A stretch of 37,746 bases of DNA, from NCBI GenBank assembly GCA_003990765.1, contig RBNJ01000183.1, positions 1 through 37,746 of the forward strand, given 5' to 3'. The position numbers were made by a program, and so were the translations under genes. The notes beneath the pieces are model-generated. The model did not search any database and was not told the origin of the DNA. It worked only from the letters and a program-made list of their open reading frames with translations. Of the stretch, positions 1-27,373 are shown in pieces (the stretch's first letter is position 1; each line of letters starts with the position of its first letter). The stretch is from Jimgerdemannia flammicorona (Eukaryota).

Positions 1-670
1 TTTTTTATAATCACTTGGACTTCTTCTTTTATTAATACACCTGTCTATCATCTATATAATACACAGTGCCCACCCCTATCTAATCCCCCTAGGGGGCTCT
101 CTCTCTCTCACCCTCTCTTAATGAAAGACCATTTTGTCAAACACTATCTCCATCTGCCCACTACTCTGTTCACAGATCACTTCTACCAGATGGTAACACC
201 ACCCACTCTGGAGACCTTAACCAACCCACCACTCTGTCAGCAGATCTCCCAATAACTCCTCTCATCTTAATAACTTTTCTTATATATCTATCTGATGTCC
301 TTTCTTGGAAACAAAGAGCTAATGTCTAGCCAACCCTATCTATACTACTAAAACCCACTCTATAGTGAGCCAACCATTGCTAACACCTCCTACTAATCAA
401 GATTTCAAATCCTTCCAGTGACCTCTCTCTCTATCTGACCTCCTCTCTATATCTAGTCAGTCCCCTACTACTATTCAAAAATTCCCCAGAACCTCACACT
501 CTCTCAGCCAATGTTCTGGCATTTGCACAAATCCCCCAACTTGCCCTATATTATAATACTCCTTATAATCTAATCAGCCACCATCCACCAGATGCTCAGT
601 ATGAAAATTCAACATAATATTCCTCTATAGCATCTGCTATTATACCACCCAGAACTTGGGAAGAATCTAT
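1..670 (-). mobile_element. LINE D: 5'-truncated 3' fragment of the L1/Tx1-like family (ORF2 C-terminus, 3' UTR, poly-A tail)
   Basis: The reverse complement ends ...AATAAAAGAAGAAGTCCAAGTGATTAT(A)6, matching the tails at 24790-24814, 23247-23299 and 37725-37746. It aligns by eye to 24140-24810. The truncation point at about 665-670 is approximate. Confidence 0.9.
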
Positions 671-1109
671 ATACAAATTAAGTTATCTGCCAAAACTACA
701 TAAGGAAACTAATAAATTACCAAATTATCACATATAAGGAATCTGCCACACTATACAGAGAGCATTATACTATATAAAGATCATTATGCTAGAAATCACA
801 TACTTTTGGAGATTGCTGTCACTTAAGAAGAAAAACTGCTAAATTGTTAGATCATCCTATATAAGGAATCCACTTACATTATATAGAGATCATTGTATTA
901 TACTAAATTATCTACTATATATAAAATTACTGCTATATCTAGAGAACTGACTCAATAAGGAAATCAGCATACAAATTTCTCACAGATATCTAGCTTTAAC
1001 TATTATATCACTAAATATTAAGAACCTCAGAAATCTCAGAATATTTATTACTTTTAACAAAGTAATTGAGAGCTCAAGTCAAACTACATCAACTTCCAAC
1101 CTTATAATT

Positions 1110-2760
1110 TATCTCTATTGAGCCAGGTATGTTATATTTGGGGGCTCAACTAGAAAGATTTCAAAATTGATATAACTTTTCAGCTCGCAAGAACCCACAG
1201 TCAAACTGGACACATTTGATATAACACCAATTTCTGCCACTATAGGAGAACTAGTTATCACTAGTATCTGGATAGAAAGAGAAGTAATTATCTCAAGACT
1301 TGCCAACTACACAGTATCAGAAGAATCCTAATCAAAAACTAGTATAGCCTAAAATCCTCAATCAGATTAATTAGACAATATAGGTAACCCTATTGAAAAC
1401 TTTGAAGAACTTAGCCAAGAACTAGAAGATCTCATTATATAAGTCTGAAATCCTACAGCCAGATTTCCCATAGCAGTTCTACCAATCTCACCTATTGAAC
1501 CTTTACTACTAGTCCTTGTAGAATTAAAAGTAGCTCTTTCAAGAATACCTAGACTCATTCTACTTCACTTAAGATTCAGAACACTATTCCCAAGATATCT
1601 AAGTACTCTCATCTCTAGTGATAGTTCAGAAAGTGAATTAGAGTCAAAATCTAAATCAGAATCTGGACCAGAATCAAAATCAGAAAAAAGTAATAATGAA
1701 ATGACCACCTCACTGCCAACCTTTGCAGGATATCCAAAGAAAGATCCTAAAGAATTCCTTGATAGAATCAAGGAAATTGCAGCTCTGAGAAATCTCTCAG
1801 ATAAAAGAAAAATTGTCATCTATAAGGCCTAGTTTAGAGAACTAGTTAGAGGAATTTTCCACTAAACAATAATTGACCCACACTCAGAACTGGCAATACA
1901 AATATAAGCAGCAATATTCTATAAGCTAGAATATATAGCCATGGTCCACTGGCTCATTGAAAAATATACAGAAAATGAAACCCACTATAAGGCTCAAAAA
2001 TCCATCATAGAGATGAAGATGAATCTTAAAGAATCACTTAGAGCCTTCTTTATAAGAATTCAGAAGAGAATATATGCAGCTGAGTTCAATGCCACCAATC
2101 AAGATATTATAGGTCTAATGATCTTCATGAATAGGATTCCTCTAAACATTATCCAGTATGTCTGTATCCTAGGTATCAAAAGGTCCAAAAAGCAAGTAGA
2201 TGCAGCCTAAGGATTCTTTAATATCAGATAAGAAACTATCTAGAGTAACTATGATAAGAAGGATAATAAAGAAGACATTCTGGTCAAAGCCCTATAAAGA
2301 CTTCTTCAAGAATAAGAGAGATCTAAAGAAAGAAGATCAGCCAAAAAAAGAAAGAAAGACAGAAGTAAAATTCAAGACTTCAGTTCCAAGTTAGACCAAT
2401 TGGTTGGATAGATTAAAAAACTCACCACATGTAAAAATCAGAGTTATCAAGACAACAGAGAATACCCACCTCAGAGGAGTCAAGGTTATCTACTAAGAGA
2501 TAATAGGAACTATCAGTAAGAGGAAAGAAGATACTCTGCCCAAGATAGACTCTAAGTCCAATACTTTCACTATAGACAATTTGGACACTATACCACTGAA
2601 TGTAACAACAAAAGAAGTGACTGAAGAGACTCAGAACTACCAAATTGAAGAAATGATACTCAGTATAAGAAGACTGAAGTCCATTCTGTTGAAGATTTTG
2701 AGGAAGCAAATAACAGTGAAGACTACAATGATCTAGACTTATACTCTACCAAGGTTACCA
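1110..2760 (+). pseudogene. gag: Ty3/Gypsy gag with a long N-terminal extension
   Basis: From 1701 the frame reads MTTSLPTFAGYPKKDPKEFLDRIKEIA, typical of a Ty3 capsid start. An eroded zinc knuckle YFHYRQFGHYTTEC at 2562-2603 has CX2CX4HX4C spacing with TGY->TAY changes. The same frame extends about 200 codons upstream with stops. Confidence 0.75.
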
Positions 2761-3199
2761 CCTGAAGAATAGTCTACCCAGTAGAGAAAAGGAAGAGATC
2801 TATAGAAAGGTCATCCAGAAATATCAGCAGAAGAATTATCCAAGAAGAAGATGAAGAATATGAAGAAGAACAAGTAGAAATATCTCTCAGACTCTCTTAC
2901 CTTTTGCCTCCAAGACAAATTAGCAGCTATCAGAGAATGAAGAAATAGAGTATGAAGAATGAGAACCTATTGCCCCAAAGCCCAAGAAGAAGTATATCCT
3001 GAAGATTATACCCAGAGATATCTATAATAAAGTCTGGCAGAAGATTCAAGAAGCCAAGATAGAAGTCTCTCTCTTACAGTTCTTACAACTAATACCAGCT
3101 GGAGTCTAAAACAAATTACTGAGGACCATTAGGTCCAGCACTGGCTGAGTCTCTATTCCATAGCAAGAGCCAGCTCCCATACTCACCCAAGCTGCAAAA

Positions 3200-3580
3200 A
3201 TACATGTCAGTACCTATCTACATAAAGATATTAGAGAACAAAAGGTGAAAATTCTCATAGATACAGAACCAGCTATCTGTATCATTGTTAAATAATTTCT
3301 GAATACCCTCTAATAGCCCATTGATGGACCATCTAACCTCAGCATTATAATAGCAGATAGAGCCCAAACTCAACTTCTTGAAGAAGTATAAAACATTACT
3401 ATCTCCCTTAAACATATTCAGTTCTCTATCTTAAAAGCTATTATTACTAAAACTGTTATCTATAATATGATTCTTAGTACTAACTAGATGAAGGAAATGA
3501 ATGCAAGTAATTGATATTGGTCAATAAGTACTTAAGTTTGACTACTGAGATAAGAAGTACAGAGTTAAGATAATCAGCTA
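3200..3580 (+). pseudogene. Ty3/Gypsy aspartic protease
   Basis: KVKILIDTEPAICII at 3242-3286 corresponds to LIDTG with GGA->GAA. Downstream, YNMILSTN*MK corresponds to the D-x-I-L-G-x-D-W motif. Confidence 0.8.
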
Positions 3581-4865
3581 TAAGTTATTAAAGAAGAAGA
3601 AGAAGGTCACTATCCAGGAAAAATATGCTAGTAGTGAAGAATCTACCATAGAAGAGAAAGAAGAATCTAAAGATGGAAATAATCCCAGACTCAATCCCCA
3701 AATCAATCTGATAGATGACAGGTCAGAAGATAATGTGTGGACTAAGAACACTGTTCCCATTACTATTAGAGCCATTGCAGGAGAAATCAAAGAATGCCCT
3801 ATCTGTCTCAAGAGATACAAGTGTCCCAAGTACTCTTCTAAGATCATTGGGATAAGGAATTTGCCTGGCACAGTCTGCCCTAAGTGCAAGAGAAAGAAGA
3901 AGAAATACAGACATATCTCAGAGATACCTATAGCTGAAGCTACTGAAGTATAAGTAATTTGGGGTCAAGAATCATCTGAGGAAGAAGAAATCCCTAAACA
4001 GGAGATTTCTGAACAAGAAGTATCTGAAGAAGAAGAGATTCCTGAACTCATTCTCTAAGATAATTCTCACTGAATACTATCTGAAGATAATAACTCTTGG
4101 AATATAGAAGAAGGACCCAGTACAATTCTCATTATTCCTAAGAAAGAAACTTATTATGAAAGGGCTTTTTAGCTAGGAAGATGTCCACACTAAATAGTCT
4201 TCTACTCTCTCCAAGACTACTACTATCAGTACCATCTACTAGATCAGTAAGAAAGACAGAGACCTCAAAGACTAGAACCCCTGGCTATAGTTGTATAGTT
4301 AACTACTTTCTAAGAAGTTACTATCAAGTTACAAAGTTGATTTAGAGGATAAGGTCTCTTCATCTGAACAGAAGTATACCTCTTGTTCACTCTTCCCCCA
4401 ACTTATGACTAAGATAGATACTGATTCCCAAAACAAGAAGAGTTCAATAATCAGAAATAGCATTCTCAAACAATGGAATATTATAACTATAGAAGACATC
4501 CAGACTGCCAAGACTATAGATATCAGAAAATTTACCTCAGTTATGATATGGTGATCCATACCTTGAAGAGAGGAGATAATAGAGACCAGATCTGAAAAAG
4601 CCAGACCAAGAAGCCAGAAAGAAGGACTCTCAAGATCTATGATTTAAGAGAAGACATCCTAGCTCTTATCAGATATGCAACCTATTAAGGATGGGTAGAA
4701 GATGCCACCAACTTCATAGAAGCCCTAGACCTTATAGAAAGAAGAGAAATCAACTATCTCTGAGACCCCTCTATATGAACCAGATGGCCACATCTCAATC
4801 TCAGAGCCTGAAGGCTCTCTGCTAGTAGAGCTTCAGCCCAAGAAGAGCCCAAACTCAGTAAGAAT

Positions 4866-5279
4866 ATTATCCAGTATGTTCTGCTATATTTTAAGACCAA
4901 ACCTCTAACCAAAGCTCACTCAGAAGATATAGAATATGATCTTCACAGTCTGGAGGATGAATCCATTAAGCCTGGAAGAATATTCATAATCAGAATCAGA
5001 CTAGTTATGTAGCTACCCTAAGAAACTTACATTCAACTAATCTCAAGATCTGAACTTACCAGATAAGGAATAACTGTAGAAGAAGAAACCATTGATTTAG
5101 AATATACAGGTAAAATTAAGATCATCCTGCATAATAATAGTATAGAATAGTACTAAATTATGAGAAGACAGAAGATTGCCCAAGCAGTCTTTATAAAAGT
5201 TAAGACTCCACAATTACAAGAAGTCTATCAACTAACTGAAGAAACAAGACAAGTCAAAGGATTTGGAAGCTCAGACAAG
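4866..5279 (+). pseudogene. dut: dUTPase domain within Gypsy pol
   Basis: One frame with 5 TAA/TAG stops contains all five trimeric dUTPase motifs in order: KAHSEDIEYDL (AGYDL), ISRSEL (RSG), ETIDLEYTGKIKI (GxIDxDYxG), QKIAQAVF, and TRQVKGFGSSD (RGxxGFGSTG). Confidence 0.9.
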
Positions 5280-5699
5280 AAGGAAATATATCTCCTTTAA
5301 GTTAATTATCTCAAGAGAAATATTCTCTAGCAAGTATACCACCAATCAGTCAAACTGCATAAGAATCTCATTCTAGAGCCTAGAGAACAAATGATCTTTG
5401 AAATCTTTATACCACCTAATCCCAGAAACCTCTTCTTTGAACCTAATGAAGATATCTCAAACCTGGATATAGAAAGATACACCTTTTCTAACAAAATAAA
5501 CCCAGTATACTTCTGAGCAATCAACCAGAGTTGGGAAACTATTATCTTATCAAAAGAAACTATTATAGAATATTTGATATCTTTTATCAATCAAACTCAT
5601 AAGGAAGTTTATGAACTAAACTTATTGAGAAACAGCAAAAGGTCCCAGAAGAAAGGAAAGGCCCCTCTGTGACCCAGGAGACAGTGAGGCCTTCTACTA

Positions 5700-6746
5700 A
5701 TATTGGAGAAGAATTGATACCCCAGTAATAGCAACAACTAGTAGAACTCCTCAATAAATATTAAGATTTCTTTACTACCAATTATGGAAATCTGCCATAC
5801 AATCTATCATATTACTATAGTATAAATATAGAAAATACAATACTCATCTGGCAGAAATCCTATAGAATACTCTATTATCTAAAGATATTTGAAAAGGAGC
5901 ATATTTAAGAACTCTTAAATAATGAAGTCATCTGACTCTCAATCACTCCTGGGCCAGCCCTATACTTATTATATTAAAGAAAAGAGGATAGAGACTCTGC
6001 ATAGATTACAGAAAACTCAATTCAGTCACTAAAAAGAATGTCTATCCTTTGTCCAGAATTGATGATCTCTTGGACTAGTTATAAGATATCAGATACTTCA
6101 GCAGTATAGACCTTTTTGCAGGATTCTATGAGATTCTCATAGACCCAAAAGACATTCAAAAGACAGCTTTTCTTACTCTAGAAAAACTGTTTGAATATCT
6201 CTGAATACTCTTTGGACTTTGCAATATACCCCCCATCTTTCAGAGGATGATAAATTTGGTCTATGTCCTTCTGATCTACCACTGCCTGATTGTATATATA
6301 GATTATTCTAACATCTATTCAGCAAATTTCAAGAAATACCTATACTATCTAAAAGAATTCTTTAAGCTTATCTGCAAGAACCACCTGAGACTCAATGTCA
6401 AGAAATGCTATTTCAGAAACAGAAACTTGAATTCCTTAGATTCATAGTTTTGAAAGAAAGAACCTATACAGACTCAAAGAAAACTGAGAAGATCAACAAT
6501 TGGCTAGTACCTAAGACCCCAAAGAAAACACTATAATTCCTAATACCAGTATCCTACTATAGAAGATTTATCAAGGACTTTGCCCAAATTGCTGCTCCAA
6601 TCTGAGTCCTTCTCAAGAAAGAAGTATCTTATAAATGGATAGAATTACAAGAGAAAGCCTTCAAAGAACTCAAGAACTGTATAACCACAGCACCAATCCT
6701 TATATCTCAATCTATAGAAGTCATTCATCTTATATATAGATATCTC
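5700..6746 (+). pseudogene. pol: Ty3/Gypsy reverse transcriptase and first residues of RNase H
   Basis: Motifs seen: SPWASP (frameshifted), RLCIDYRKLNSVT, YPLSRIDDLLD, KTAFLT, FGLCNIPPIFQRMIN, VYIDYSNIYS (YxDD damaged), SYYRRFIKDFAQIAAP, then FILYIDIS. Confidence 0.95.
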
Positions 6747-6889
6747 TATAGCCCTCCTTTCTCTACTACAATTCACATTACACACACTTTTACAACATAT
6801 TTTCAAGTCATTTATTGGAGAAAGATATTAAGACAATGTCAACCAGTAAGCAAGCAGATGCATATACTAGTAGTGCTCTGAATGAATGG

Positions 6890-7028
6890 AGTTGATCTGG
6901 ATGAGATTTGATTCAGGTTCATCATGTGATGTATTCAAATCAACTTAGATTGGTCTCATGATCTGATCTGGATTGATCTAGATTGATCCAGATTGATCTA
7001 TCCAGATTAATCTATCTGGATTGAAATC
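6890..7028. repeat. hAT left subterminal repeats (GATC[T/C][A/G]GATT units)
   Basis: Reiterated gatctggatt / gatctagatt / gatccagatt just inside the TIR. Confidence 0.75.
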
Positions 7029-7301
7029 TTTAGTGACATCACTCTTTCTTTTGTTCATTTCACTCTTGTTTTTTTTTCCTACCACACTTTGGTGATATCA
7101 CCCTTTCCTTTGTTCCCTCTCTATTCTTTGTTCTTTTTCTTTATTCTTTCCTGCTGCATCACGAGCAAATAAAACAACAGCCCTTAATTCATATGTTGGT
7201 CCAGTCTACTCATTTTTTACCCTACAATGATTGTTAAAAGAGGGAGTATTTGAGATGGAAATACACTCTCTGCTGACAATGTTAGATTCTTTCTTATATA
7301 G

Positions 7302-9360
7302 GCAGCATACAAGCTGCTCATCGAGAGCCAAAGGAGTGATGGTGGTGGCAATGGTGATGATGATGGCAATGCAACAGTGATGGCAGGGATGAGGGTGAAT
7401 TCTGGCAACAACTCACAGTAGCCCTTCAGACCTCAGAATTCACAGACCTCATAGCTATGTATGCAGCAGCCTTTTTGGAGCAACTGGTAGTAGTTGTAGG
7501 TTGCTTTTTTCTGCCACTACTTTTTACTTGTTTAAATTCCCCCAGTATAACCTAATTCATCTCATGCTCTTCTTAGGATCCACAGCTCTATAGCGAGATC
7601 TGCTGACTTTATTCACAATATCTGATCAAGATAAAGAAAGGTTGGAGGATATTGTAGGGCATGCTTTTGGTGGCTGAGCTGTTGAGTCAATGCATTGTAT
7701 AGTGGAGGTCTCAAAAGGAATAGAAGTAAGCCTTCATGAGCAATCTTGTGTAAATTGTGCAACTTGTCAGTGTATAACTCATTGGCATGCAGCCTACTCA
7801 CTTACTCACTCATGCTCTTTTTCTGAAATACCCATCTCTGTGTTTTATTTAATTTTATTTTTTACATGGTCTCCTCCTAAAAAACACCCACACCTGTATA
7901 CAATCTATCTGTACACAATCTGTCTGCATGTAACCCATCTGCATACTTATCTTGGTCCCTCAGATCAGAGCTCAGTTCCATTGGAAAGGAGAGTTCAAAG
8001 TTACCCAAGTTCAACCATGTCTGGCATCTGATCAAATAGAGAAATTTGAGGGCAAGATGTTTAGCATAAGTATGTAGTACCAGTATTGTCATCAAGGCTT
8101 GGGGGTCTATATTCGAATCAGAGCCAATTATTCTCGACCAAGGGGTCTATTGGCCAGCAGGAGTAACCAATGATGAAGAGAACCATATATTTATTAATGA
8201 ATGTGGAGAGGTGGTTGTGATGGTGGTAAGGAACCTCTATAGTGATGAGCTTCGCCACCACATCAATGAGATTTGTGAGAATTGTATCAAATACTGAGTA
8301 GCAGAAAAGAGGGGGCGAAAAAAGCAAGGAGGGGAGGTTTGAATGAGAATTGGGTATACTGCAATACTGGCAAAGAGTGGGTTCTGGAGTTCCAAAATCC
8401 CCTGCACTCATCTCTCTTTTTTTTTACTCCTCTCCAGATAAATCACACTCTTCACTAACATACTCTTTTTGATACAAATTCAGGAATGCACAAGATTCTA
8501 TACCTCTACCAGAACTTTAGAAGTGCCATCGAAGAGCAAACTGCATGCAAGCATGACACAGCCTGTGCAGCGATGGTGGCTATGATCTGGGATTCTTTGA
8601 GCAGATTAGTAGAGCATATGATAAGCCAGCTTGGTGGTGATCTCAGTATGGTTGTACATACATTCTTGGCACAATTTAGCATACCATATGAGATGAGGAG
8701 CTCTGCTTTTTTGGGGTGCTGCAGCCTGGAGAGTTTCTGCAGCCTGGGGGATTTCTGCGGCCTGAGGGGTTTCTGCCCTCTCATATGTAAAAAGGACTAA
8801 CCAGTTGCCATCCATTTTGGCAGGTTTCCAAGCCAGGGCTCCCAGGACTGGACCAAGAGCAGGCATCTACCAGCACAGCCTGGCAGTATGAGGTCCTGGG
8901 CCAAGGGTTCACCCAACTGTATGCTCACATCACATCAGGATATGCTGGGCACAACCTTTCTCTGCCCATATACACAGACAACAATATCACCCTAGTAATG
9001 TTTTACATCCCAGAAAGGAAGGGCTCAATCTGGGAGAATAGTGGTAGAGTCTGATATGACCTCACCTATAGTTTAGGGGTCTCATTTGTGGCCAACACAG
9101 CTGTCTACATAACTACTATAGCACTATCACCTTTGAGGAGAGCTCAGACACAACAGTTATTGTACTTACAATAGATGATAGGCTCATCAAGACCTGGGAC
9201 CAGCAGGTGGAACAGTTTTTGTGAGAGTTAGGCAATCTTTTGTGAGGAATAGACAGTCTTATATAAGGGTTAGGTAGTTATTTTATATAGATTGAGCAGT
9301 CTTATGTAGAGGGTTGGGCCAGGCACCTCTTCTGTAGCACTAGCTTAGCCATTATGTAGG
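7302..9360 (+). pseudogene. Spliced cargo gene inside the hAT; putative TET/JBP-like 2OG-Fe(II) dioxygenase
   Basis: Exons about 7302-7495, 7577-7725, 7964-8376, 8484-8692 and 8824-9360. Intron phases are compatible for 7726-7963, 8377-8483 and 8693-8823 (last donor eroded to AT). Branch points CACTAAC at 8453 and GACTAAC at 8795. Translation includes MRIGYTA, AMIWD, GYAGHNLSLPI[Y]TD, ANTAV, [YS]T, VIVLTIDDRL. Gene start and end are approximate, and the functional call is from motif pattern only. Confidence 0.6.
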
Positions 9361-9476
9361 ACCCTATCAGCCCCTTGGCCCTGCTCTGTAGTGCTGCTGA
9401 TACAGTGCTGCGGTGTAGGACCAGGGTGTCTGTGGGACCCAAACCAGCAATGGGGCCCAAATCTATAGTAGACTCC

Positions 9477-9556
9477 GACCACTGGAAATGCCCTCTGACT
9501 ACCAGAAGTACTCTCTGACTGCCAGAAGCACCCTTCAACTGCCAGAAGCACCCTCT
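9477..9556. repeat. 20-bp tandem repeat, 3-4 copies (GACTGCCAGAAGCACCCTCT)
   Basis: gactaccagaagtactctct / gactgccagaagcacccttc / aactgccagaagcaccctct, plus a diverged upstream copy. Confidence 0.75.
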
Positions 9557-9569
9557 GCCCCAGACTCCT

Positions 9570-10260
9570 TGGCAGCTTGGGGCTGCCCCTATGCTGCTAG
9601 CAGAGGGCCACAAATTTTGCACACTCCCTCTATCTACCCTACCTATCCTGGACACTTGTAGCTTGGGGCTGCCCCTTGCTGTCAGCAGAGGGCCGCAAAT
9701 TTTGCATGCTTCCTTGCCAACCCCATGCCCACCAACCCTGCCAACCCCATGCCCACCAACCTTGCTGACCAACCCCACCCATGGACCTGGGCACTGACAG
9801 CTTGGGGCTGCCCCTTGCTACTGGTGGAGGACCACAAATTTTGTATGCTCCCTCCACCTGCCCCACCCATCCTGGACACTTGTGGCTTGGGGCTGCCCCT
9901 TGCTGCCAGTGGAGGGCCATAAATTTTGCATGCTCCCTCTACTGACTCTGTGCCCACCAACCCCACTGACCAACTCTGCCCACTTATCCGGGCACTGACA
10001 GCTTGGGGCTGCCCCTTGCTGCTGACAGAGAGCTGTAAGTTTTGCACACTCCCTCTATCACCCCCCCTGACTGGGATACTTGTGGCTTGGGGCTGCCCCT
10101 TGCTACTAGTGGAGGGCCACAAATTTGGTATACTCCCTCTGCCGACCCACCCACCAACCTGGGTACTGACAGGTTGGGGCTGCCCCTTGCTACTGGTGGA
10201 GAGTCACAAACACTGCACACTCTCTCTACCACCAACCCCACTGACTGCTGCCCACTTAGG
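9570..10260. repeat. GC-rich tandem repeat of about 85 bp, 7 copies, core GCTTGGGGCTGCCCCTTGC
   Basis: Cores start at about 9576, 9662, 9801, 9886, 10002, 10086 and 10173 (spacings 86, 139, 85, 116, 84, 87). Confidence 0.9.
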
Positions 10261-10376
10261 CCATAAACTCGGGGCCAAGTTCTCAGGGTTTTTTACCTTT
10301 TTATTATTTTTGAAAGGTATTAAATATTCCACAAGGCCAACCAACTTATTTGCAAACCCCCAGAATCAACTGAATT

Positions 10377-12830
10377 TTAGTGGCCTGAGCTCCACCAAGA
10401 CTTCAGACACATATACACTTGGATTATCTCAGCATTCAGTACACACCTCTTTGGAACAATGAGGTCTACCCCATCTGAGAACACTTGCTCGATAGGAGCA
10501 CTGGAGGCAGGAACCGCTAGGTAGTCCTGAGCCATATCACACAGGCTGGGGAAGTCTGTTTGATACAGCTGCATGCCCCAGTGGGTAGAGCAGTGGGTAG
10601 AGCAGTGGTTAGATTGGTGGATTAAATTGGCCCAATGCCTACCTAATAATCCACCTTCTACTAGTTGAGTACCTCCATGCCCTCCAGCAGGATCATGCAG
10701 TCGCTGACAAGGTAAATAGTAAGTTTGTCTATTGACAACAGCTCTTCCACTGATGGCTCCCTCTTCCTCTTTCTGCTGAAGAAAATGTGGGACAGAAGGG
10801 ATCCCTTGGCATATTCATCCGGACTTCGGCTGGAACCTTGCGGCAGTGTGTAGTTTTTCTGGTACACTTCGATTACAGTCTGCTTGGTTCTCTCAATGAA
10901 GTGCTGCTCCCAGCTCTGATCTTTATAGTATTATAGCTTTAAGTGTGGGTCCAGCACTGTTCAAAGGAGAGGAGAGAGTGAGTTTTTGTAGGGATTTCTC
11001 TGTTTTGGAAGGGGCAATGGCCACACACTGACATCAACACACCTGTACTGATTGAGTATATAACAGTATCTGTTTGAGAGTAATACTTTCTGAGCTTGCT
11101 AAGAGCAACCTCCATGGCATCTCTCTGATCCAGGCTCAATCATAAATCACTGCAACCCTCTAGCCTGTCCTTGAGCTTGTCCTCTAGCCAGTCAATCAGA
11201 AGGTTATATACTGGTATTGCCAAGCTTATTGTCGGAGTCGTTTGTTTGACTATATCCTTCATATAATCGTTGAAACACTGGCAGTTATATGTATGTGGTG
11301 AGGTGTTGCATTGTGCGGAGGTAGACAAAATGAGTGTAGAGACTGACAAAATGAGTGTGGAGCCAGAGTAATCACCACTTACTTCCAAAACTCTGACAAC
11401 ATTTCTAAGTACATCCCACTCACTTTCATCTAGAGCCTTGGCCTGTATTTCCTTGTTGGTAGCCACTATTGAATCTATTGGCTTTTTTTGTTTTTTTAAA
11501 ATAAATCTTCAATCATCCAAAACAAGTTGCTTCAGCTGACCAAAGAAAAAAAGGATGCATACTATAGCAAACTCCAGCACACACTGGATCATTGCAAATA
11601 TTGAGTTCCAATATATATAGATATCTAATATAAGCTCTTTTGGGACTAAACTGATTACTCTACACTGCACAGCAAATTTGTCTCATCATTGTGGGGATGA
11701 TCAGACTGATACAACCAGGTTGTGTAGCTTGGAAATTATACTCAGGGCCCCTCCTCTCTCGGATGTTTTATCTATATGTATAAGATAGTCCTGAACAGCA
11801 AGGTTCAGTATGTGGGCCTAATATCATACATGGCAGCTATCTGTACTGAAGGCCATGTTTTTCTGTTTGAGGCTGGCTGCTAAAACTTTGAAAAATGTTG
11901 AGTTGTTTGTGGCATTGTCTGTCATAATGGTCAAAATCTGTACTTGAAATATTTGATCAGTGAATTTATATGAAAATAAATAACCAATAAAATCTGATTT
12001 GGTTTAGGACCTCTCTCAAAACACTGACCTAATAGCAAGCCCCCCTTTTTTATCTTGGTTGTGATCCCAAGCTCCCAGATATATGTAACTAATAAAAGCA
12101 TCTGCAATGTTGTCTCCAGAATGAGGGCCAGCAAGTTTGACAAAGTCAAGGGTGAGAGATTTAAGCTGCCAATCGAGGTCAATCTAATAACTGATAATGC
12201 CCAGAAATGAAATTGCATTGGAGGATGTCTATGTGTCAATCATAAATGAAATTTTGCCTGCCGAATTCTGCTTATTGAATGTGAGGTTAAATTGATAAGC
12301 TCTTTTATATAATTCAGCTTGCAAAGGTCATGGTGCTACCCTTATTTTACCTGAAGTGTCTGGCAGAGATTGTCATACTCCTTCCTATAGGCCTCCAGGA
12401 CATCTTTGTGAATAGTATCAGCACTTGGCAAATATAAATCATACTTGAGAAGGCCAAAAATGCTATGCAATTGATCACTCTCAATAGTTGTGAATGGCTG
12501 GTCTGTATATACAATCCAGCAAATAAGCCAATTTCGAAATTCTGCTGAAGAGTATGGCTAAATATTTTTTATTAAATGATATTGTTGGTATAGAAATGGT
12601 CAGGTAATTGGATAAACATATCCACCACAGCTTGGATGTCGATTTTATTTGTCTCTGTGTTCTTTTTGATTTTGTTAGAGTGCTTGTCTTTTATATATCA
12701 ATTCATGTTCGAAGTCATACCCTCAAGCATTTTGAACTTCTGGCTGGTGCAGTTTATGCATGTGTATGTATTGTATATGTATGTGTATATATTATGTTGT
12801 GGATGCATCCAGTATATGAGTCATGTAGAG
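10377..12830 (-). pseudogene. hAT transposase, intron-containing (about 7 introns), with BED zinc finger and C-terminal dimerisation domain
   Basis: BED finger CINC...GMTSNMN*YIKDKH (about 12680-12830), QPFTTIES, KISFMIDT*TSSN (first Asp), IMTDNATNN (second Asp), AHILNLAVQ, LDPHLK, FPSLCDMAQDYLAVPASSAPIEQVFS (Glu). GT-AG introns, e.g. 12350-12268 and donors GTATGC at about 11562 and GTAAGT at about 11382. Start codon not located. Confidence 0.93.
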
Positions 12831-12869
12831 GATTTGGATTGGAGGATTTGGTTGAAGAATTTAGATGAG

Positions 12870-13160
12870 AATTCAGATTGAATGATTCAAATTGGAGGAT
12901 TTGAATTGGAGGATTTGAATTGAAGGATTCAGATTGAGTGATTCAGATTGAGTAATTCAGATTGAGTAATTTGGATTGAGTGATTCGAATTGAGTGATTC
13001 AGATTGGGGTGGTTCAGATGGATGATTCAGATGGGGCGATTCAGATGGGGTGATTCAGATGGGGTGATTCAGATTAATCTGAGTTGATTCAGATGGCTTT
13101 GGATTTGAGATTCGGATCAAACCATCATATGATGAATCAAATCCAGATTTGATTTGAATT
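12870..13160. repeat. hAT right subterminal array of about 14-bp units (GATTCAGATTGAGT / GATTCAGATGGGGT)
   Basis: More than 10 tandem copies of gattcagat[t/g]g[a/g]gt next to the right TIR. Confidence 0.85.
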
Positions 13161-16100
13161 GACTCATTCAGAGTACTATATACTAGATCAGATAGATCTG
13201 GGGCCTTCACCTTGCAATATTTTGGATAAAAGAATGGGCTTGGGATGGGGCCTTTTAGTAGTCCAAGTGGATAAGGCAGCTTGGGCAGTAGAAGTAGTGT
13301 GGGTGGTGAGACTGAAGGGCAGGCAGAGAGGAGCTTTGTGGATATACTGAGAGATAGTGGCTGGCTGGTGGGATCTCAGGGAGGGGCAGGCTGGAGGGAA
13401 GGGAAAGTAGAAGATTGGGGAAGCTGGAGGAGCTGGAGGAGCTAGACCTCAGCTGGTGAGTGGTAGGGCTGGTGCTGCTGGGGGTAGTGGTAAGACTGCT
13501 AATAGTAGCATAATTAGAAATCTGGAAAAAAATTCAGATGTGACTGTTGATGGTGGGGCTGGGCAGATGGGCCCAAAGTAGATGGGGGACCTGGCTGATA
13601 GTGTAATGGGGCTAGTGGTGGCACCATTACTCAAGAAGTCAATTTTGGAGTTTATGGCTACCTTGTGCTTTCAGGGCTTGGTGGTGATGGTAAGAATAGT
13701 CCTGGGGCTTATCTTGCAGCAGGTGGCTGGAGTAGTCTCAGTGAAGTTCCTGAAGGGGCTGGAGGGGATTGAGGTGGGCTTTGAGGAGATAGGCCCACTA
13801 GATGAGGCTCTGAAGACTAGAGTGGTAGTAGGGAAAGTAGTGGTCCCTATGGTGTACTGCCTTAGGTGGGACCCCAGAGTAGTATAGTTACTGATGAAGG
13901 GGGTGCCTATGGTGACAAAGGCTAAGACTAAGAGGAGAGTGGAGGAGGTAATGGTGGAGTATAGTGATGTAGTAGATATCAGCTTCCAGATATGGAAGGG
14001 GACTACCTTTCAGACAGGTGATATTGATGTCAGAATTAGACTGGCTAAGAGGGAGGCCACAGAGAAGACAAGTGACTGGCCATCAGTATTGATGTAGAGG
14101 GCATTTGTCTACAAGATATCAAGGATGAAGGAGAGTGAAGAGGAGGAGGAGAACTTGTTGGAAGTGCTGGAGAAGTTTAGTGGTGCAGTTGAGTAGCAGA
14201 CAAAGATCTGGAAGCTATATGAGAAGTCAATACACCTGGAGATTATTGATGGGAAGCATATTCATACTGACAAGAGGCAGTGGGAGAGGGCTCAAGAGTG
14301 CAGAAGGCAGAGGGAGTTGCTAGCAAGTATAGAAGGAGGGGCTAAGATGAAGGCTGGGGGCCCTGAGAAGTCTGAGAGAGTGAAGGCAAGTGTCTGAGCT
14401 AGCAAGAGAGGAGGTGATAGAGAGGAGGACCTGGAAGGAGCTGTGAAGGTACTGCTTAAGAACCTGTTTGTGAATGGTACTTTTGAGGTCTGGGACCCAG
14501 TCATGGAAAATACTCCCCCTCTAATCTGGCAGAGCCCAGCTGTGAGGAATCAGGTAGCAGAGGATGAGTTGATGAGAGGTGCTCAGCAGGTACACTTTGG
14601 GGTTTCTGATGTGGTAGAGGGTGGACAGGTGATGGCTGTTGGTGAGAATGAGCTAGTAGATGTCTCTGAGGAGAGATGAGATGAGTCTACCAGTGTAGGG
14701 ACAGACACCATGATGCTGGATGCAGGAAGGCCAGGGACATCAGAAGGAAAGGAGGTGGAGAACCTACTGTAGATGAGCAAGGTGATAGATAACCTCATGG
14801 CTGAGGAGTTGGGGGAAGTGGACTTGTGAGTGATGAGTGAGGAGCATTGGACAGAAATTCTGCAGGAAGAGAGGGTGGTGGGGGCACTAAAGATAGAGAT
14901 TCTTGTGATTTTCCTGGAGAAAAAGAGATATGAGGTTGATAAGGTGAGAGAGGTGGAGCTGATGGTTATTGCAGGTGAGTGGGCTACATACTGTTGGGCA
15001 GAGCAGCATAGTTTGTAGCTCTGGCAAGAGGTATGTCTGAAGTATTGTAAGAACTTCAAGGAAAAGGAGGATGGGGTGATGGCTGAACTTCTGGAAGGGT
15101 TGGAAGCCTAGGTGACTGAGGAGAAGGTGCTGGCTGCTGAACATGAATTGGACTTGGCACAGGAGGAGTTGAATGCAGATTTATAGAGGCTGTAATTAAT
15201 ATTCAATATTATTACTTATTAATAGTACAACTAACATTTTTTCTCTGAATGTGAATAGATTATGAGGTACTGGGAGATATAAGAACATTTTTACTTGGCT
15301 TAAGGGATTGGAGGCTGATCTCTTTTTACTATAGGATATATGGTGTGAGGATAAGGAAGATCAAGTAGAGTGGACTAGAGAATGGGGAGAAGCTACTACA
15401 TGGGTTGGCAAAGTGGCAATTCTGGTGAGAAAGGGTAGAGGAGATTTGGGTAGAATTAGAAGCTGGGGTGATTATTTGGTCTGAGGAGAATAGTATAGGC
15501 TGGAGTAGAAATTAGTAAAGGTTGGCTCCTACTACTGTCCTGTGGTCAGGGGTGAGCAGATTGAGTGGATTAAGGATCTTTTGGAGGAGGGCATTCTCTT
15601 GGAGGAAGGTATTGATATTCTGGAAGGTGACTTTAATATAGTGTGGGATCCACAGCTAGATAGAACTGATAGAGAGAGGAGTGTGGGCAGGAGGAGTGGT
15701 GGTCTGGATAAGTGGGAGGAGGCAGAGAACCTTAGCTCCTTAGGGGATATGGATAGAATATATTGGGGCAATTGAAGGGTCTATATGCACTGGGTAAATG
15801 GGCTAGATATAAGAATTGATTGGATTCTAATGGCAGAGTATTGGGGAGTAGATGTTTGGAGGACTCTAGAGGTGGAGTGGTGCCTATGGTCCAATCACTG
15901 GGGGCTGTTAAAGCAGGGACAGTTTGGGGGGATTGAAGATAGACTCAGACATTAGTGCCTTAACTCCTTCCTGCTGGATGAGAAGGAGTTGTGGGACCCA
16001 TAAATAGAGGAAATTCAGAAGAAGATCACTCACTGGATATGTGAGGGTTTATCTGTAGGCAACTACTGAATGAGGTTGAAGGAGGTTGTAAGGGTATATT

Positions 16101-17291
16101 GGAGAGGAGCTGGGAAGGAGGCTGGGAGGTAGAGAAGAAAGCGAGTGAGGTATACTTCTAATAGGCTGGTTAGATTATAGATGAAATGAGCTGATTTGCT
16201 TTCTTCTGCAGGGGTAGAGAATTGGAGGTTGGAAAGGGTGAAATTGAAGGTAGTAGAGTTGCAATAGATATTGAGAGAAGAGAAGGAAATTCATTTGAAG
16301 AGAATGGCTGCCAGACTACAGTGGCAGGGGCTTGAGGAGGGCAAGCAGCCTACTAGGTACTTGTCTAGGCTTCTTTAAGCTAGGAGGGTGTGACATCATT
16401 AGGATGGGGTCTTGGATATTGAGGGGGAAATGGCACATGACATATAACAGATCTTGGGAGTACTGAAGGAGAGATGGAGGGGTCTATGGAGTAAGGAGAA
16501 AGGGGGAGCAGATGAGGGGGCAATTGGTGAAATACTGGAGGAGTGGAATCTGCCATGAGTAGAGGAACTTGGTGACTTGATTATACTAGTCCAAGAGGAG
16601 GAGATCCAGAGCGTCCTTGTGGCAACCAAGTATGGGACTGCACCTAGTGAAGATGGGTTGCCTTGGGACTTCTGGAAGAAGATAGCAAAAGTTCCTGGAG
16701 TATTAGAAGAGATGGCTGCTCTTTGTGACCATGTTCTACTGAATGGAAAGTGAATTGGTGAGCAGGACTTAGAGCTGGTGGCCTTGTTGTATAAAGATAA
16801 GGAAAGAAAGGAGGATTGGAAGAACTGGAGGCTAATTATGCTTCTAGATATGAACAGGAAGATGGTAACAAAGGTGATTGTTACAAGACTACAGAAGGTT
16901 GCCCAATGGGTGCTGGGGGAGGAGCAGTGGGGCTTTGTTGGAGGCAGGCTTATCAGAGATGGGACTGCCTGAGTTTATGACATCATTGAAGGAGTGTGGG
17001 CTTGTGGATTGGATGAGAGACTGGTCTTTTTGGACCAGGAGAAGGCCTATGACCATGTTTGGCAGATATGGCTAGGCAAGGTACTGGATAGAATTGGTAT
17101 TCCCCCATGATTTCAAGTATCTATGTTGAATCTGTTAGAGGGGAGTCAGGCAGTACTAATGTGTAATGGTCACCAGGATCTGGCATTCCCCTTGGGGAGA
17201 GGAGTTCTGCAAGAAGACCCACTGTCTTCTATCCTCTATGCTCTTTCATTGGAACCTTTGATGGATAGGATACAGTAGAAGGTGGCAGGGC

Positions 17292-17491
17292 TAGTGCTCT
17301 CAATGAATAGAATCAAATCAAATCAAATTTGGCCCAAACTCAATTTAATTCAATCGAATCAAGAGTCCAATTCGATTCAACTTTTGATTCAATTCAAATT
17401 GATTCGAATTGAAAAATCCCCGATTCAATTCGACTTGTTTAACCCTCAATTCAATTTGATTCAAATTGATTCGACTTGTTTGGGAGCACTA
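17292..17491. mobile_element. 200-bp non-autonomous hAT-type MITE
   Basis: Ends TAGTGCTC...GAGCACTA. Perfect 8-bp TSD GGCAGGGC at 17284-17291 and 17492-17499. Internal ATTCAA/ATTCGA repeats. Excision restores LINE RT KVAGLSVYGVVWKIGAFADD. Confidence 0.95.
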
Positions 17492-17746
17492 GGCAGGGCT
17501 CTCAGTATATGGAGTAGTATGGAAGATAGGGGCCTTTGCAGATGATATGGTAGTTGGTCTTGGCTCCATGGCAGATGTGAAGGCACTTCAGAAGATAGTG
17601 GATTGGTATAAGGTATACTCTGGGGCAAAACTCAACTGGCATAAGTGTGAGACAATGGTGCTGGACACCTTTCTCAGCTATCATTCACATTATATATACT
17701 TTACAATACACTTTCAAGTAGTTTATTAGAGAAAGGTATTAAGGCA

Positions 17747-19773
17747 ATGGCAAACAGCAAGCAATCTGGGGTATGTACTGGGCAGGGCAACCCTAGCACA
17801 TTCAACTGGCAGTAGGTGGAGAGAGGTCCTGGCCTGGGGGGAGGCATGAGGGGATTGTTGGCAGGAGGATGAGGAGGGGGAAGAGGCAGTAGTGGAGGAC
17901 AGGAGTCTGGGAGGGCGAGCTTTGTGGAGATGGTGAAGGAGAGGCAGCAGGACTCGGCTGGAGGGTTGGCTGAGAAAAGGCAAGAAGATGGAGAAGATAG
18001 CCATTCACAGGGGAGTAGCTCTTGGTAGTGAGAGCAGTGGAGCTGGGGGAGTAGTGGCTGGGGGAAATGTGATAGCTGATGGTGATGAGACTGCCAATCT
18101 GGAAAAAAATTCAGATGTAACTGCTGATAGTATAGCTGAGCAACTGAGGCTTAGAAGGCAAGGAGATTTGGCAGATAGTGTAATAGGTCTAGCAGTGGCT
18201 CCATTACTCAAGGAATCAATCTCAGCATTTATGGTGACATTATGCTTCCAGGGACTGACAGTGATGGTGAAAATGGTACTGGGGCTTATTACTAAGCAGG
18301 TGGCTAGAGCAGCATCTGTAAAGTTCCTGAAAGGATTGGAGAGAGTGGAGGTGGGTTTTGAGGAGGCTGAGCCTCTGGAGGAAGCACTGAAGGTTAGATT
18401 GATAGTTGGAGAGGTGTGTGTCCCAATGGCATGCTGCCTGAAATGGGACCCCAGGGTGGTCCAACTGCTGGTAAAAGGAGTGCCTATGGTGATGGTGGTG
18501 GAGACGAGAAGGAGAGTTGAGGAGATCATGGCAGAGTATGGAGAGGTAGTGGATATTGGGTTCCGAGTCTGGGAGGGGACCTTGCTCAGGACAGAAGATG
18601 TGGATATGAGGATTCAGCTAGTAGAGAAAAAAGCTACTGGGAAGGCAAGGAACTGGCCTTCAGGGATGGTCTGGGGGATGATCTTGTGCAAGATAATGAG
18701 GGTGAAGGAGAGTGAGGAGGAGGAAAAGGACTTGCTGGAGGCACTAGAAGAACTGAGTGGAGTAGTAGAGTGGCAGGTGAAGGCTTGGAAGGCTTTTGAG
18801 GAGCCAACACACTTAGAGGTAGTAGATGGGAAGCAGATTAGAGTAGACAAGGGGCAATGGGAGAAAGCTCAGGGACATAAATATCAGAAGGAGCTACTGG
18901 CCAAGATAGAAAGTCAACCACAGAAGGAGGCAGGTGGAATAGTGGAAACAGGGGGTGCCAAAGTGAGTGTCTGGGCTGGTGAAGACAGTAGGAGTGTGGG
19001 GAAAGGATCAGGAGAGGACAGGAAAGCAGCTGGCAGTGACCCATATACTGATGGTACATATGTTTGAGGTCTGGGAAGAGAAATGAGAGAGGTCACCTAC
19101 CCCTACTCCACTTATCAGAAGAGATCTGGCTTCCCAGAGCAGGGTGGGGGAGGATGTGCCTATGAAGGGGGCCCAGCAAGTGCAATTTGGAGTTCCAGAG
19201 GTAGCAAATGGGAGATGGATGGAGACAGTTGGAGAGGAGGAACTGGTGGATGTCCTGGAGGTATGGGATGAGGCTGTGAGTGCCAGGGCTGATACCATGA
19301 TATTGGATGGTAGGAGACTGGCAATCCCTGGAGGGAAGAAGGTAGAAAACCTACTTTTGATATATAGAATGATGAATAACCTAGTGGCTGAAGAGCTGGG
19401 GGAGGTGGACTTGAGAGTAATGAGTGATGAGCATTGGGTACAGGTTCTATAGAGGGATGGTGTAGAGTTGGCATTGAAGGTGGAGATACTTATGGTATAT
19501 CTGAAGGAGAAAGGGTATGAAGTGGACAAGAAGCAGGAGGCTGAGCTAGCAGGGATTGCTAGTGAGAGGGCCAAATACTGTTAGGCCAAGTGATATAGAT
19601 TGTAGCTCTGGCAAGAGGTCTGCCTAGAGTACTGAGAGGAGTTTGAGAAGAAGGCAGATGGGGAGATGAATGAGCTGTTGGCAGGATTGGAGGCTCAGCA
19701 GACTGAGGAGGAGGCAGTAACTGCAGAACATAATCTGGATATAGCATAGAAAGAGATGAATATGGAGCAGTAG
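17747..19773 (+). pseudogene. LINE B ORF1 (about 675 codons, RRM-like central region)
   Basis: MANSKQ start. Includes the 359-aa open segment 17988-19067 and 19144-19452. Homologous to ORF1 of LINEs A and C. Confidence 0.85.
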
Positions 19774-19805
19774 GAATGGACTGGATTAATACACCATACT
19801 TTATT

Positions 19806-22800
19806 ATGAATAGTACAACTTACATTTTTTCTTTAAATGTGAATGAGTTATGGGATACTTATTGATGCAGGAATATTTTTACTTGGCTGAAGGGATTGGA
19901 GGTCAATCTCTTCCTCTTGTAGGATGTCAGGTGTGAAGATGATTTGGATGGACTGAAATGAACAAAGGAATGGGGAGGTGAGGCAGTTTCAAAAGGCAAG
20001 GTTGGAATTCTGGTATAGAAAGGCAGAGGACATGCAGAGCTGGGGGGATAGATTAGTCTGGAGTGAGTGGATATGTTTGAGATGGGAGCCAGTTACAGTG
20101 GGCTCTTGTTACTGCCCTGTAGTATGAGGTAAGCATGTGGATTGGGTGAAGAGTCTTCAGGAGAGTGGGATTCTCACAGAGGCTGGGGTGGATATGCTGG
20201 GTGGAGACTACAATATGGTCTGAGATATACTGTTGGACAGAACAGATAGAGGATGGGGAGCTGAGGGTCAGAGTGGAGGACTGGCAGTATGGGAGGAAGT
20301 GGAATGGCTGAGTGCTCTAGTAGATGTGGGTAGGGAGTGCTGGGGGGATAGGAGGGTATATATACATTGGACAGGGGGCTTGGGGACAAGAATTGATTGG
20401 ATTCTGATGGCCAGCTGCTGGGGCTTAGATGTTTGGAAGTCACTGGAGTTGGAATGATATTCTTAGTTGGATCATTGAGGGCTTTTAGAACAGGAGCAAT
20501 TTGGGGAGGATGGGGATGGGCCTGGACATTGGTGTCTCAATTCCTCCTTATTAGATGATAAGATCTGGTAGGATGAGTGGGCTGCAGACATGCAACTGAG
20601 AGTAGAGTGCTGGAGATGAGAAGGTACCCCAGTTGGTGTTCAGTAGATATGGATAAAAGAGATGGCCAGGACCTACTGGAGTGAGGTACAAAGCTTGGTG
20701 GCATGGCTCCATTGACAGGGTTTGGAAGAAGGAGAGAGACCCTCAAAGTATCTCACAAGAGTCCTTCAGGTGAGAAGGGTGCAGTAGAGGTGGAAGGGGG
20801 TGCTTGACTCTGATAATATACTGGTACATAGTATATATGATATTCTTGGATCTTTAAAGGAGCATTGGAGTGGTTTGTGGAATGAGGAGGAGGGTGGGGT
20901 AGATGCTGATGCCATTGACCATACATTAGAGGATTGGCACCCCCCATGAGTAGATGGAGTGGGAGACTTAGTGCTGCCTGTACAAGAAGAGGAGATTCAC
21001 TAGATTCTTGCTGTGACATTGCTAAGTATGGCACTCAGGGAGGATGGTTTGCCCTGGGACTTCTGGAAGAAGATGTTTGGGATCCCAGGAGTACTGGGTG
21101 AGATGACAGCACTATGTGATTTTATTCTACAGACAGAGAAATGGGTGGGAGATCAGGATCTGAGGTTGGTGATATTTCTTTATAAGAATAAAGGAGGACG
21201 AGAGGACTGGAAGAACTGGAGACCAATTATGCTGCTGGATATGGATAGAAAGTTGGTTACTAAGGTAGTGGTTGCAAGGCTACAAAAGGTGGCCCAGCAA
21301 GTCTTGGGTATTGAGCAGAGGAGCTTTGTAGGAGGCTGGCTCATTAGGGATGGCACAGCCTGGGTACATGGAGTTATTGAAGGGGTGTAAGCCTGTGGAT
21401 TGGATGGGTACCTGGTCTTTTTAGACCAAGAGAAGACTTATAACTAGGTGAGGTGAGTCTGGCTGGTGAAGGTATTGGACAGAACTGGGGTTCTACACCA
21501 GTTCTGATTAGCTATAATCAGTCTACTGGAAGGGAGTAGGGCTGTACTCATGTGTAATAGATATAGAGGGGTAGCATTTCCTCTGAGTAGGGGGGTGCCC
21601 CATGGGGACCCATTGTCCCCCATTCTGTATACTCTTTCACTGGAACCTTTAATGGATAGAATCAGGCAGAAGATAGTAGAGCTCCCTATCTTTGGTATTG
21701 GGTGGAAAGTAGGGGCCTTCACAGATGATATGGTGGTTGAACTAGGATCAATTGCTGATGTCAAGGAGTTCAAGAAGACAGTGGAGTGGTATGAGAAGAA
21801 CTCTGGGGTGAAGCTTAATTGGCATAAGTGTGAAACAATAGTGTTAGGCAACAGTCTGGTGGGAGGGGAGATTATTAGAACAATTGTCCCTACTAGTAAG
21901 ATAGTGTCATACTTGGGTATCTATCTATCAGTGTATGGATCAGTTCTACTCAGACTTTGGTGGGAGCAGCAGGTTGGAACCTGGGGAGAGACCCTGCAGA
22001 GTTGGGGGGGCCATCAATTGTCCCTGGCAGAGCATGTCTCAATTTTGAATATCTACTGGTTGCCGAAGTTATGGTATCTGGCTTATTATCTAGACTTTCT
22101 AGCCTGGGTGGTGAAGAGAGTGATGAAGCTGGCCAAGAGATAGATCTGGGCTGGAAGAAGGAGTCAGATTAGCTGGGAGGTCTTGTCCTTACTAGTGGCA
22201 AGTGGTGGACTTGGGCTGATTGACTTTTCAAAAAGGCTACACTGCCTGAGAGCATAGTGGCTGAAGAGAGCCATAGAGTTGAGAGGGGAAGATTGGGTTC
22301 CCCTACTACAGAAGGTCTGGGAGATGAGGTCCTCACTATGAGGCTTGACTGGAGATCTTCTATCTTTGGTTGAATTTAAGAATACTGAATAATTGTAATA
22401 TAAAGACTTCTGGTGAGAGATGGTAGAGAGGATGCACCATATTGGAATTCATTAGCAGGGAAATAAAGGGGAGATGGATTGGGATCTGGCAATATAGAGA
22501 TAGGACCAGATGCTGCTAAGTGGTATTCCCTTACTCAAGTTTGACATTAGTGATGAGATAGAATGCCAGAGGGGACTAGGCCAGGATCTGTGGCTCAGTG
22601 GTTGGCAAGGTGTTGGAATCAGCAAAGATTAGGCCTGGTATGGTATTTGGGCCTGGAGTACTGAGGTGAGGAAATAGATGTCACCAAAGTACTGGGTGAC
22701 TTGGTGGTGTATGCTGAGGAGAAATAAAATGCTCAACTACCACCCAGGTCACCTTATTGAGGGTGGTTACTTTGACTGTGAGAAATGCTATAATGTAGAA

Positions 22801-23170: not shown

Positions 23171-23259
23171 GGAGAGGCTCTCCTATGGGGATCGGATAGT
23201 GGGAGGAAATACTGTAAACTTATTAATAGACTGATAATAAATGTCAAAGTCCAAGCAAC

Positions 23260-23301
<42 letters not shown>

Positions 23302-27307: not shown

Positions 27308-27310
27308 AAA

Positions 27311-27322: not shown

Positions 27323-27373
27323 TGCTTAGCGGCTATACACCCCTCTTACACATATGCTACACTACACTATACA

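Follow-up and report, generated by a model that had tools for sequence, protein, structure and literature searches.

The 37,746-nt contig RBNJ01000183.1 of Jimgerdemannia flammicorona (assembly GCA_003990765.1), analysed over its whole length and hereafter called the window, is made up of stacked transposable elements. Within it, a decayed DNA transposon of 6,308 bp (positions 6871-13178) belonging to the hAT superfamily was distinguished. Between its ends lie two converging genes: (i) a minus-strand transposase pseudogene and (ii) a spliced plus-strand pseudogene (the passenger), whose predicted product is an Fe(II)-dependent dioxygenase remotely similar to the TET/JBP proteins. The coordinates of all features are collected in Table 1.

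Ends and transposase of the hAT element

The element is bounded by 15-bp terminal inverted repeats and flanked by an exact 8-bp duplication of its target (TATACTAG). When aligned over 95 nt, the two ends show 77% identity per column, and both contain the block TTCATCAT[G/A]TGATG approximately 50 nt in from the tip. About 33 inverted pairs of like quality are expected in the region by chance, while an exact 8-bp flank is expected with a frequency of approximately 1.5e-5 per pair, so the inverted ends and the duplication together are not a chance occurrence. A 7-bp duplication of the hAT7 type was considered and rejected, because the ends would become asymmetric and 8 bp is the simpler reading.

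The transposase gene is broken by many stops and frame changes. Its C..H.LNL, DNA.NN, D.W and S.ER.FS motifs, regarded as typical of hAT transposases, are readable by eye in the broken frames, and its dimerisation domain (PF05699) was identified with a Pfam score of about twice the cut-off (Table 1); pieces of the predicted RNase H-like DDE core matched no Pfam model. With an 8-bp duplication, short inverted ends and this dimerisation domain, the element has the defining features of the hAT superfamily. An earlier interpretation made from the letters of the window alone (the sequence-only reading) had proposed such an element on the basis of matching ends and a perfect duplication, and the 14/15 match of the ends, the exact flanks and the Dimer_Tnp_hAT domain confirm it.

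Structure of the passenger gene

Homology support for the second gene, which runs toward the transposase, spans positions 8094-9224. In tblastn comparisons with the window, its closest known relative (P0002) gave E 5e-49, with 72% identity over 91 + 37 residues, the alignment continuing into 9108-9218 past a frameshift. A second relative, the intact 374-aa protein P0005, is collinear with the three exons (E 4e-9 and 6e-9), as are the exons of the metagenomic locus L001 (E 2e-9, 0.008 and 6e-11 over 8094-8376, 8484-8692 and 8824-9105, respectively). Both introns of the window copy occupy positions at which L001 also has introns, and this agreement, together with the collinearity, identifies the passenger as a member of a real eukaryotic gene family.

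The splice junctions and the frameshift (9105/9108) had been placed correctly in the sequence-only reading by manual splicing. Its multi-exon plus-strand gene of approximately 7302-9360 stands, in its convergent order and by homology, for 8094-9224, and its 5' part (approximately 7302-8077) is unconfirmed: when the proposed upstream exons (7231-7380 and 7934-8077) were locally aligned with the N-termini of the relatives, the actual scores were attained by 39, 164, 77 and 218 of 500 shuffles. These exons, aligning no better than shuffled sequences, were rejected as unsupported.

Relatives of the passenger family

The longest exon (8824-9111, with one stop read as X) was used as the query in a HMMER scan of 1.84 billion representative proteins, which returned four matches at E <= 0.001. 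The closest was P0002 (136 aa, 72% identity, E 3.4e-39), and the others included P0003 (134 aa, 43% identity) and the intact P0005 (30% identity). The fourth (P0004), a repetitive protein of 4930 aa matching in 11 stretches (E 5.2e-5), was left out of the family. Protein P0006 was gained by a word-indexed protein search with P0005, and loci L001 and L002 by a metagenome scan with family alignment A2. The same kind of scan with family alignment A3 yielded no locus, a word-indexed search for longer proteins with exon 8791-9054 gave no match, and one with family alignment A1 returned P0005 and P0002 only. All of the relatives sit on short environmental contigs. A word search of sequencing runs found one DNA run containing 0.07 of the words and, among the matches listed, no RNA run.

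Five intact relatives (P0002, P0003, P0005, P0006 and the product of L001) were compared with the window copy. All five carry T/V-H-x-D against I-Y-T-D of the window and H-G-[ST] against Y-S-T, and all retain the GG turn, so that the iron triad HxD...H is conserved in 5/5. An N-terminal block, R-G-K/x-R...G-x-Y-x-S-A-G-Y-T, is also conserved in the family. The window copy has Tyr in place of His at 8971-8973 (TAC) and at 9117-9119, and Ser in place of Gly at 9120-9122. The sequence-only reading had reversed precisely these codons (Tyr to His at 8971 and 9117, Ser to Gly at 9120), and all three reversals are borne out by the intact relatives, which have His at both sites and not the Tyr that the same reading had named as contrary evidence.

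Contigs L001 (1-3666) and L002 (1-2870) are 99.0% identical, with a G+C content of 0.34 and an observed/expected ratio (O/E) of CpG of 1.2. The dioxygenase relative is intact on L001, with GT..AG introns at the two positions of the window introns, and stop-bearing on L002. The contigs differ at 26 sites (23 substitutions and 3 indels); 19 of the substitutions are transitions, of which, in the direction from L001 to L002, 15 are G>A or C>T, many of them at CpG, with stops acquired in L002. Such a pattern fits methylated repeat copies better than it fits one gene of a host. These short contigs show no transposase, and a second spliced gene (2320-3250) has no Pfam family. Near the 3' end of L001/L002, short repeats of the GATTTGA type loosely resemble the subterminal repeats of the hAT element; a terminus common to the L001 repeats and the right end of the element was rejected, the 19-nt match (E 0.018) being too weak.

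Assignment of the passenger enzyme

Three independent lines, namely (i) the conserved motifs described above, (ii) neighbours in the ESM Atlas and (iii) a profile-profile test, together indicate a TET/JBP-like dioxygenase with a double-stranded beta-helix (DSBH).

The ESM Atlas model of P0002 has a predicted template modelling score (pTM) of 0.59 and a predicted local distance difference test score (pLDDT) of 0.69. Among its ten listed structure neighbours, seven are clusters named or Pfam-marked as 2-oxoglutarate (2OG)-Fe(II) oxygenases and three are unnamed basidiomycete clusters. The template modelling (TM) scores of the 2OG-Fe(II) clusters range from 0.54 to 0.63, and one of these clusters carries Tet_JBP on 28% of its members. 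In the comparison by language-model features, a cluster named "Tet-like 2OG-Fe(II) oxygenase" (PF20515 on 72% of members) ranks third for P0002 with a score of 0.91, and the top cluster for P0005 (score 0.96; 209/256 features in common) has PF20515 on 15% of its members. By the Atlas tool's own statement, such neighbours are leads. The 2OG-Fe(II)/DSBH identity put forward in the sequence-only reading agrees with both the structure neighbours of P0002 and the conserved HxD...H.

For the profile-profile test with hhalign, a five-row alignment of the family (P0005, P0006, the L001 product, P0002 and P0003) was compared with a ten-row phage Tet_JBP template, composed of gp2 of Mycobacterium phage Cooper, named as a TET/JBP protein in the legend of Figure 7 of Kojima (2025; Biology 14:1741, PMC12730594), and nine of 100 phage records matched by tblastn. 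The score was 34.5 (P 7e-4) over 94 columns with 21% identity, and the motifs fell into register: PTHVD on PYHRD, GG on GG and HGST on HGVT. Among 130 column-shuffled templates the highest score was 24.3 and the median 14.9, so that none equalled the observed one; with the template reversed, the score was 14.8. As a specificity control we used a nine-row alignment of 2OG-FeII_Oxy_3, built from the PiuC protein of cyanophage P-SSM2 (Pfam 1.7e-16) and eight of 227 matched records. Against it the passenger family scored 16.4 (P 0.19), at background level and with an unrelated stretch aligned, and the Tet_JBP family scored 19.5. The passenger family therefore appears specifically, though remotely, TET/JBP-like, by a signal that is weak but specific.

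Several results weigh against this assignment. No model of Pfam, PHROGs or NCBIfam matches the window exons or any relative, and Pfam Tet_JBP, PF20515 and 2OG-FeII_Oxy_6 gave no match to them at E <= 1 or <= 10. A profile search of Protein Data Bank (PDB) sequences returned one spurious match (E 0.86). Our AlphaFold2 models of the family, built on alignments that were too shallow, are unusable (pLDDT 33.6 with alignment A1 and 36.8 with A4), and the fold evidence therefore comes from the ESM Atlas model alone. A Foldseek search of the PDB with the second of these models had no match at E <= 0.001, a result that is meaningless and does not count against the fold. The structure neighbours of P0002 also take in prolyl-hydroxylase-like families, the probability given by hhalign is 26.5%, and Cooper gp2 itself matches Pfam Tet_JBP (E 4e-6, 26.6 bits) under the gathering cut-off of 34.9. 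In TET/JBP dioxygenases, an arginine after the second His binds 2-oxoglutarate. The five relatives have no conserved arginine or other basic residue at +8 to +17 after this His, which makes the co-substrate uncertain; 4/5 relatives, like the window copy, do have an Arg at +20/21. Of the identity given in the sequence-only reading, the TET/JBP type is probable, in that the hhalign score exceeded all controls and the feature neighbours include Tet-like PF20515 clusters, and it lacks a hidden Markov model (HMM) match.

The same results bear on whether the passenger could be a 2OG-Fe(II)/DSBH oxygenase of another kind, prolyl-hydroxylase-like or acting on a small molecule and not on DNA bases, whose capture was unconnected to methylation. 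Clusters of prolyl 4-hydroxylase, HIF prolyl hydroxylase, 2OG-FeII_Oxy_3 and 2OG-FeII_Oxy_5 are found among the Atlas neighbours with TM scores similar to that of the Tet_JBP-bearing cluster, and both the missing Tet_JBP and PF20515 matches and the unconserved arginine agree with such an enzyme. We nevertheless consider it unlikely, as hhalign favours Tet_JBP, with its motifs aligned, over 2OG-FeII_Oxy_3, the family-bearing feature neighbours carry PF20515 (Tet-like) or PF12851, and the only dioxygenase passengers of DNA transposons reported in the available part of the survey by Kojima (2025) are of the TET/JBP type.

Decay of the window copy

The dioxygenase pseudogene is interrupted by three in-frame TGA stops (8295-8297, 8340-8342 and 9052-9054); the remaining lesions are the single frameshift, one AT splice donor (8693) and the loss of both iron ligands. 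The CpG O/E is 0.12 in the hAT element, 0.00 in 1-6870, 0.03-0.06 in the elements bearing a reverse transcriptase domain (RVT_1) and 0.51 in the copia-type element, and TpG and CpA are in excess across the window. This window-wide loss of CpG with an excess of TpG and CpA is the signature of methylated-CpG deamination. Hypermutation of the rust type, specific for TCG, was not seen in the window, where TCG is the least depleted CpG context.

None of the two His-to-Tyr changes (8971 and 9117) and the Gly-to-Ser change (9120) is at a CpG site, so they are ordinary transitions and not products of the dominant CpG process. The mutational rationale given for the back-mutations in the sequence-only reading, a strong cytosine-mutation pressure, is not supported, since the bias of the window is a loss of CpG and all three changes lie outside it. 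The window copy is dead, with pseudogenes for both transposase and dioxygenase, Tyr in place of both iron-binding His residues and CpG nearly gone. For this copy, the "mobile 5mC-modifying system" (5mC, 5-methylcytosine) that had been envisaged is ruled out.

Table 1. Features of the hAT element and of its surroundings in contig RBNJ01000183.1
Feature	Position	Strand	Remarks
Left target-site duplication copy, 8 bp	6863-6870		TATACTAG, identical to 13179-13186
Left terminal inverted repeat, 15 bp	6871-6885	+	TAGTGCTCTGAATGA
Left subterminal short tandem repeats	6946-7024		10-14-bp units, GATTGATC[Y]AGATT
Dioxygenase pseudogene, first homology-supported exon	8094-8376	+	tblastn with P0005 and L001 exon (E 2e-9)
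Intron	8377-8483	+	GT..AG; position matches an L001/L002 intron
Dioxygenase pseudogene, middle (helical) exon	8484-8692	+	tblastn
Intron	8693-8823	+	AT donor in place of GT, AG acceptor; position matches second L001/L002 intron
Dioxygenase pseudogene, core exon	8824-9105	+	I-Y-T-D at 8968-8979 where relatives have H-x-D
Dioxygenase pseudogene, last part past frameshift	9108-9224	+	Y-S-T at 9117-9125; stop 9222-9224
G+C-rich internal tandem array between converging genes	9300-10260		units of ~85-115 bp around near-palindrome GCTTGGGGCTGCCCCTTGC; G+C 0.52-0.57
hAT transposase pseudogene	10377-12830	-	many stops and frame changes
Dimer_Tnp_hAT (PF05699) domain of transposase	~10395-10568	-	Pfam E 7.9e-11, 42 bits against cut-off 21.4
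Right subterminal 14-bp tandem repeats	12828-13075		~15 copies, ATTCAGATTGAATG
Right terminal inverted repeat	13164-13178	-	matches left repeat at 14/15 positions (93% complementary)
Right target-site duplication copy, 8 bp	13179-13186		TATACTAG, perfect match to left copy
RVT_1-bearing, poly(A)-ended (non-LTR-like) retroelements	13200-24810 and 32000-37746	+	Pfam RVT_1
Copia-type element	27269-31833		RVT_2, copia gag, integrase SH3-like; long open frames

Flanking elements

The left flank of the hAT element is the pol region of a retroelement, with a Pfam RVT_1 match at 6205-6444 and a weak RT_RNaseH_2 match at 6606-6881. RNase H-like sequence, read by eye, reappears near 24.84 kb (24840-25100), beyond the point at which the adjacent RVT_1 element ends in poly(A), and shares the A+T-rich, CpG-free composition of 1-6870. 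Its presence on both sides places the hAT element in a nested pile of insertions and suggests a single old long terminal repeat (LTR) retrotransposon as the site into which both this element and the RVT_1 element(s) beside it are nested. The copia-type element, by far the least decayed in the window, is probably the youngest insertion. The sense strands of the RVT_1 elements have a very strong excess of G over C (GC skew of +0.4 to +0.5 over many kb); a run of 37 A residues occupies 23263-23299, and another A-rich 3' end lies close to 24800.

Origin and possible role of the passenger

Taken together, these data make it probable that the locus is the remnant of a once-autonomous hAT transposon, inserted in the pol of an LTR retrotransposon and carrying, convergent with its transposase, an Fe(II)-dependent DSBH passenger of the TET/JBP kind that likely oxidised 5-methylcytosine and counteracted silencing. 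The fixed points of this reading are the ends, the duplication, the hAT domain, and the exon-intron structure and HxD...H common to the intact relatives. A cut-and-paste element would have entered the pol region, duplicating 8 bp of its target, with the minus-strand transposase and the spliced plus-strand dioxygenase converging between the inverted ends. By analogy with the TET/JBP passengers of other fungal DNA transposons, we infer that the most likely substrate oxidised by the intact enzyme was 5-methylcytosine, or else some other methylated base, in DNA, and its activity would counter both methylation-based silencing and the C-to-T decay that ensues. A demethylase-like enzyme borne by a transposon would be a direct counter-measure to the methylation defence of the host. 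The window copy appears to have lost this contest, and with its near-total CpG loss and both iron ligands gone it illustrates the defence winning.

Another reading concerns the history of the segment at approximately 7.2-10.3 kb. The dioxygenase together with the G+C-rich repeat might be foreign to the hAT family, having either arrived later as an insertion of its own or been captured once, by this copy only. No further copy of the element was found within the 37,746-nt window, which weighs against the reading proposed here; moreover, the G+C content of the segment is 0.45-0.54 against 0.36-0.45 in the transposase part, the relative on L001 has a different neighbour with no transposase seen, and a weak direct repeat (7213-7240 and 10289-10316, 75% over 28 nt) brackets the segment. 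However, this repeat is T-rich, weak and at the level of chance pairs, and it was rejected as a capture boundary; the segment has neither inverted ends nor a clean duplication. The loss of CpG is alike in cargo (0.10), repeat (0.08) and transposase (0.17), which argues that these parts are of similar age, and the TET-bearing transposons described in the available part of the published survey (Kojima, 2025) likewise have no passenger boundaries. A later insertion or isolated capture therefore seems improbable. That no second gene exists, the short, broken frames without any family model match being chance products of decay, can be dismissed in view of the protein scan, the strength and collinearity of the tblastn alignments with P0002 and intact P0005, and the intron positions common to L001 and L002.

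Comparison with known systems

With the phage Tet_JBP proteins (Cooper gp2 and its relatives, PF12851) the passenger family of the hAT element shares HxD, GG and HG.T, which align profile to profile. The similarity is remote (21% over 94 columns), the phage proteins are not borne by a eukaryotic transposon, and a long helical insert and introns set the eukaryotic family apart. Iyer et al. are said to have described, in 2014, TET/JBP passengers of Kyakuja-Dileera-Zisupton and Plavaka transposons in Basidiomycota, of the AG type, including CcTET of Coprinopsis cinerea. These systems have in common with the element a dioxygenase inside a fungal DNA transposon, CpG-methylated transposons in the host and an HxD...H metal site. 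They differ from it in that their transposases are of a superfamily other than hAT, and in that the AG type can be classed as Tet-like (PF20515, found among the Atlas neighbours), whereas the passenger family described here has no HMM match.

We tentatively raise the possibility, which we regard as open to considerable doubt, that the family is a fourth passenger type beside PU, AG and PE, independently captured by a hAT element with 8-bp duplications outside the sampled rusts, mushrooms and truffles and otherwise represented by six environmental sequences. Without the usual 2OG arginine, such an enzyme may rely on a different co-substrate or produce a different base modification, as algal CMD1 does.

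The closest published systems are those in rusts, where TET/JBP passengers have been reported in seven DNA-transposon lineages, hAT among them (Kojima, 2025). These include twenty TET-bearing hAT families (hAT7), which make 7-bp duplications and were found in six species of Puccinia; the passengers have no recognisable boundaries and are proposed to act against silencing by methylation and against C-to-T hypermutation. The statement in the sequence-only reading that no hAT association was known is thus out of date, hAT-borne TET/JBP genes having been published in December 2025. As there described, the hAT7 elements resemble the Jimgerdemannia element in superfamily, in the TET/JBP-type gene beside the transposase, in the lack of passenger boundaries and in the anti-methylation role proposed for the enzyme. 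They differ in (i) the duplication (7 bp against 8 bp), (ii) the terminal sequence (hAT7-1_PGr begins CAACGGTGGG, the Jimgerdemannia element TAGTGCTCTG), (iii) the gene order, the dioxygenase of the described hAT7 families lying upstream of the transposase and oriented like it, in contrast to the convergent genes found here, and (iv) the TCG-biased decay of rusts, of which none was seen in the window.

Of 12 short motifs of the passenger family (GYTVSY, THVD and HTDNN among them), six have no match in the supplementary table of Kojima (2025), as searched with its long cells truncated; of the other six, five have at most one occurrence there, LDGG and FYNL being seen once each, and WYDL occurs five times. 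The PU-type sequences of that source share the spacing of HxDxD, GGxF and H.T with the family, by eye only. No standard profile library recognises the family, and it has been seen in only a handful of environmental sequences, which suggests that the published survey, seeded with known TET/JBP proteins, falls short of the full range of passengers. The window element adds an example to a known kind, and it opens no new question, because both the principle and the association with hAT elements have already been published; with the Jimgerdemannia case the published list gains one more hAT lineage and an enzyme family that is very divergent.

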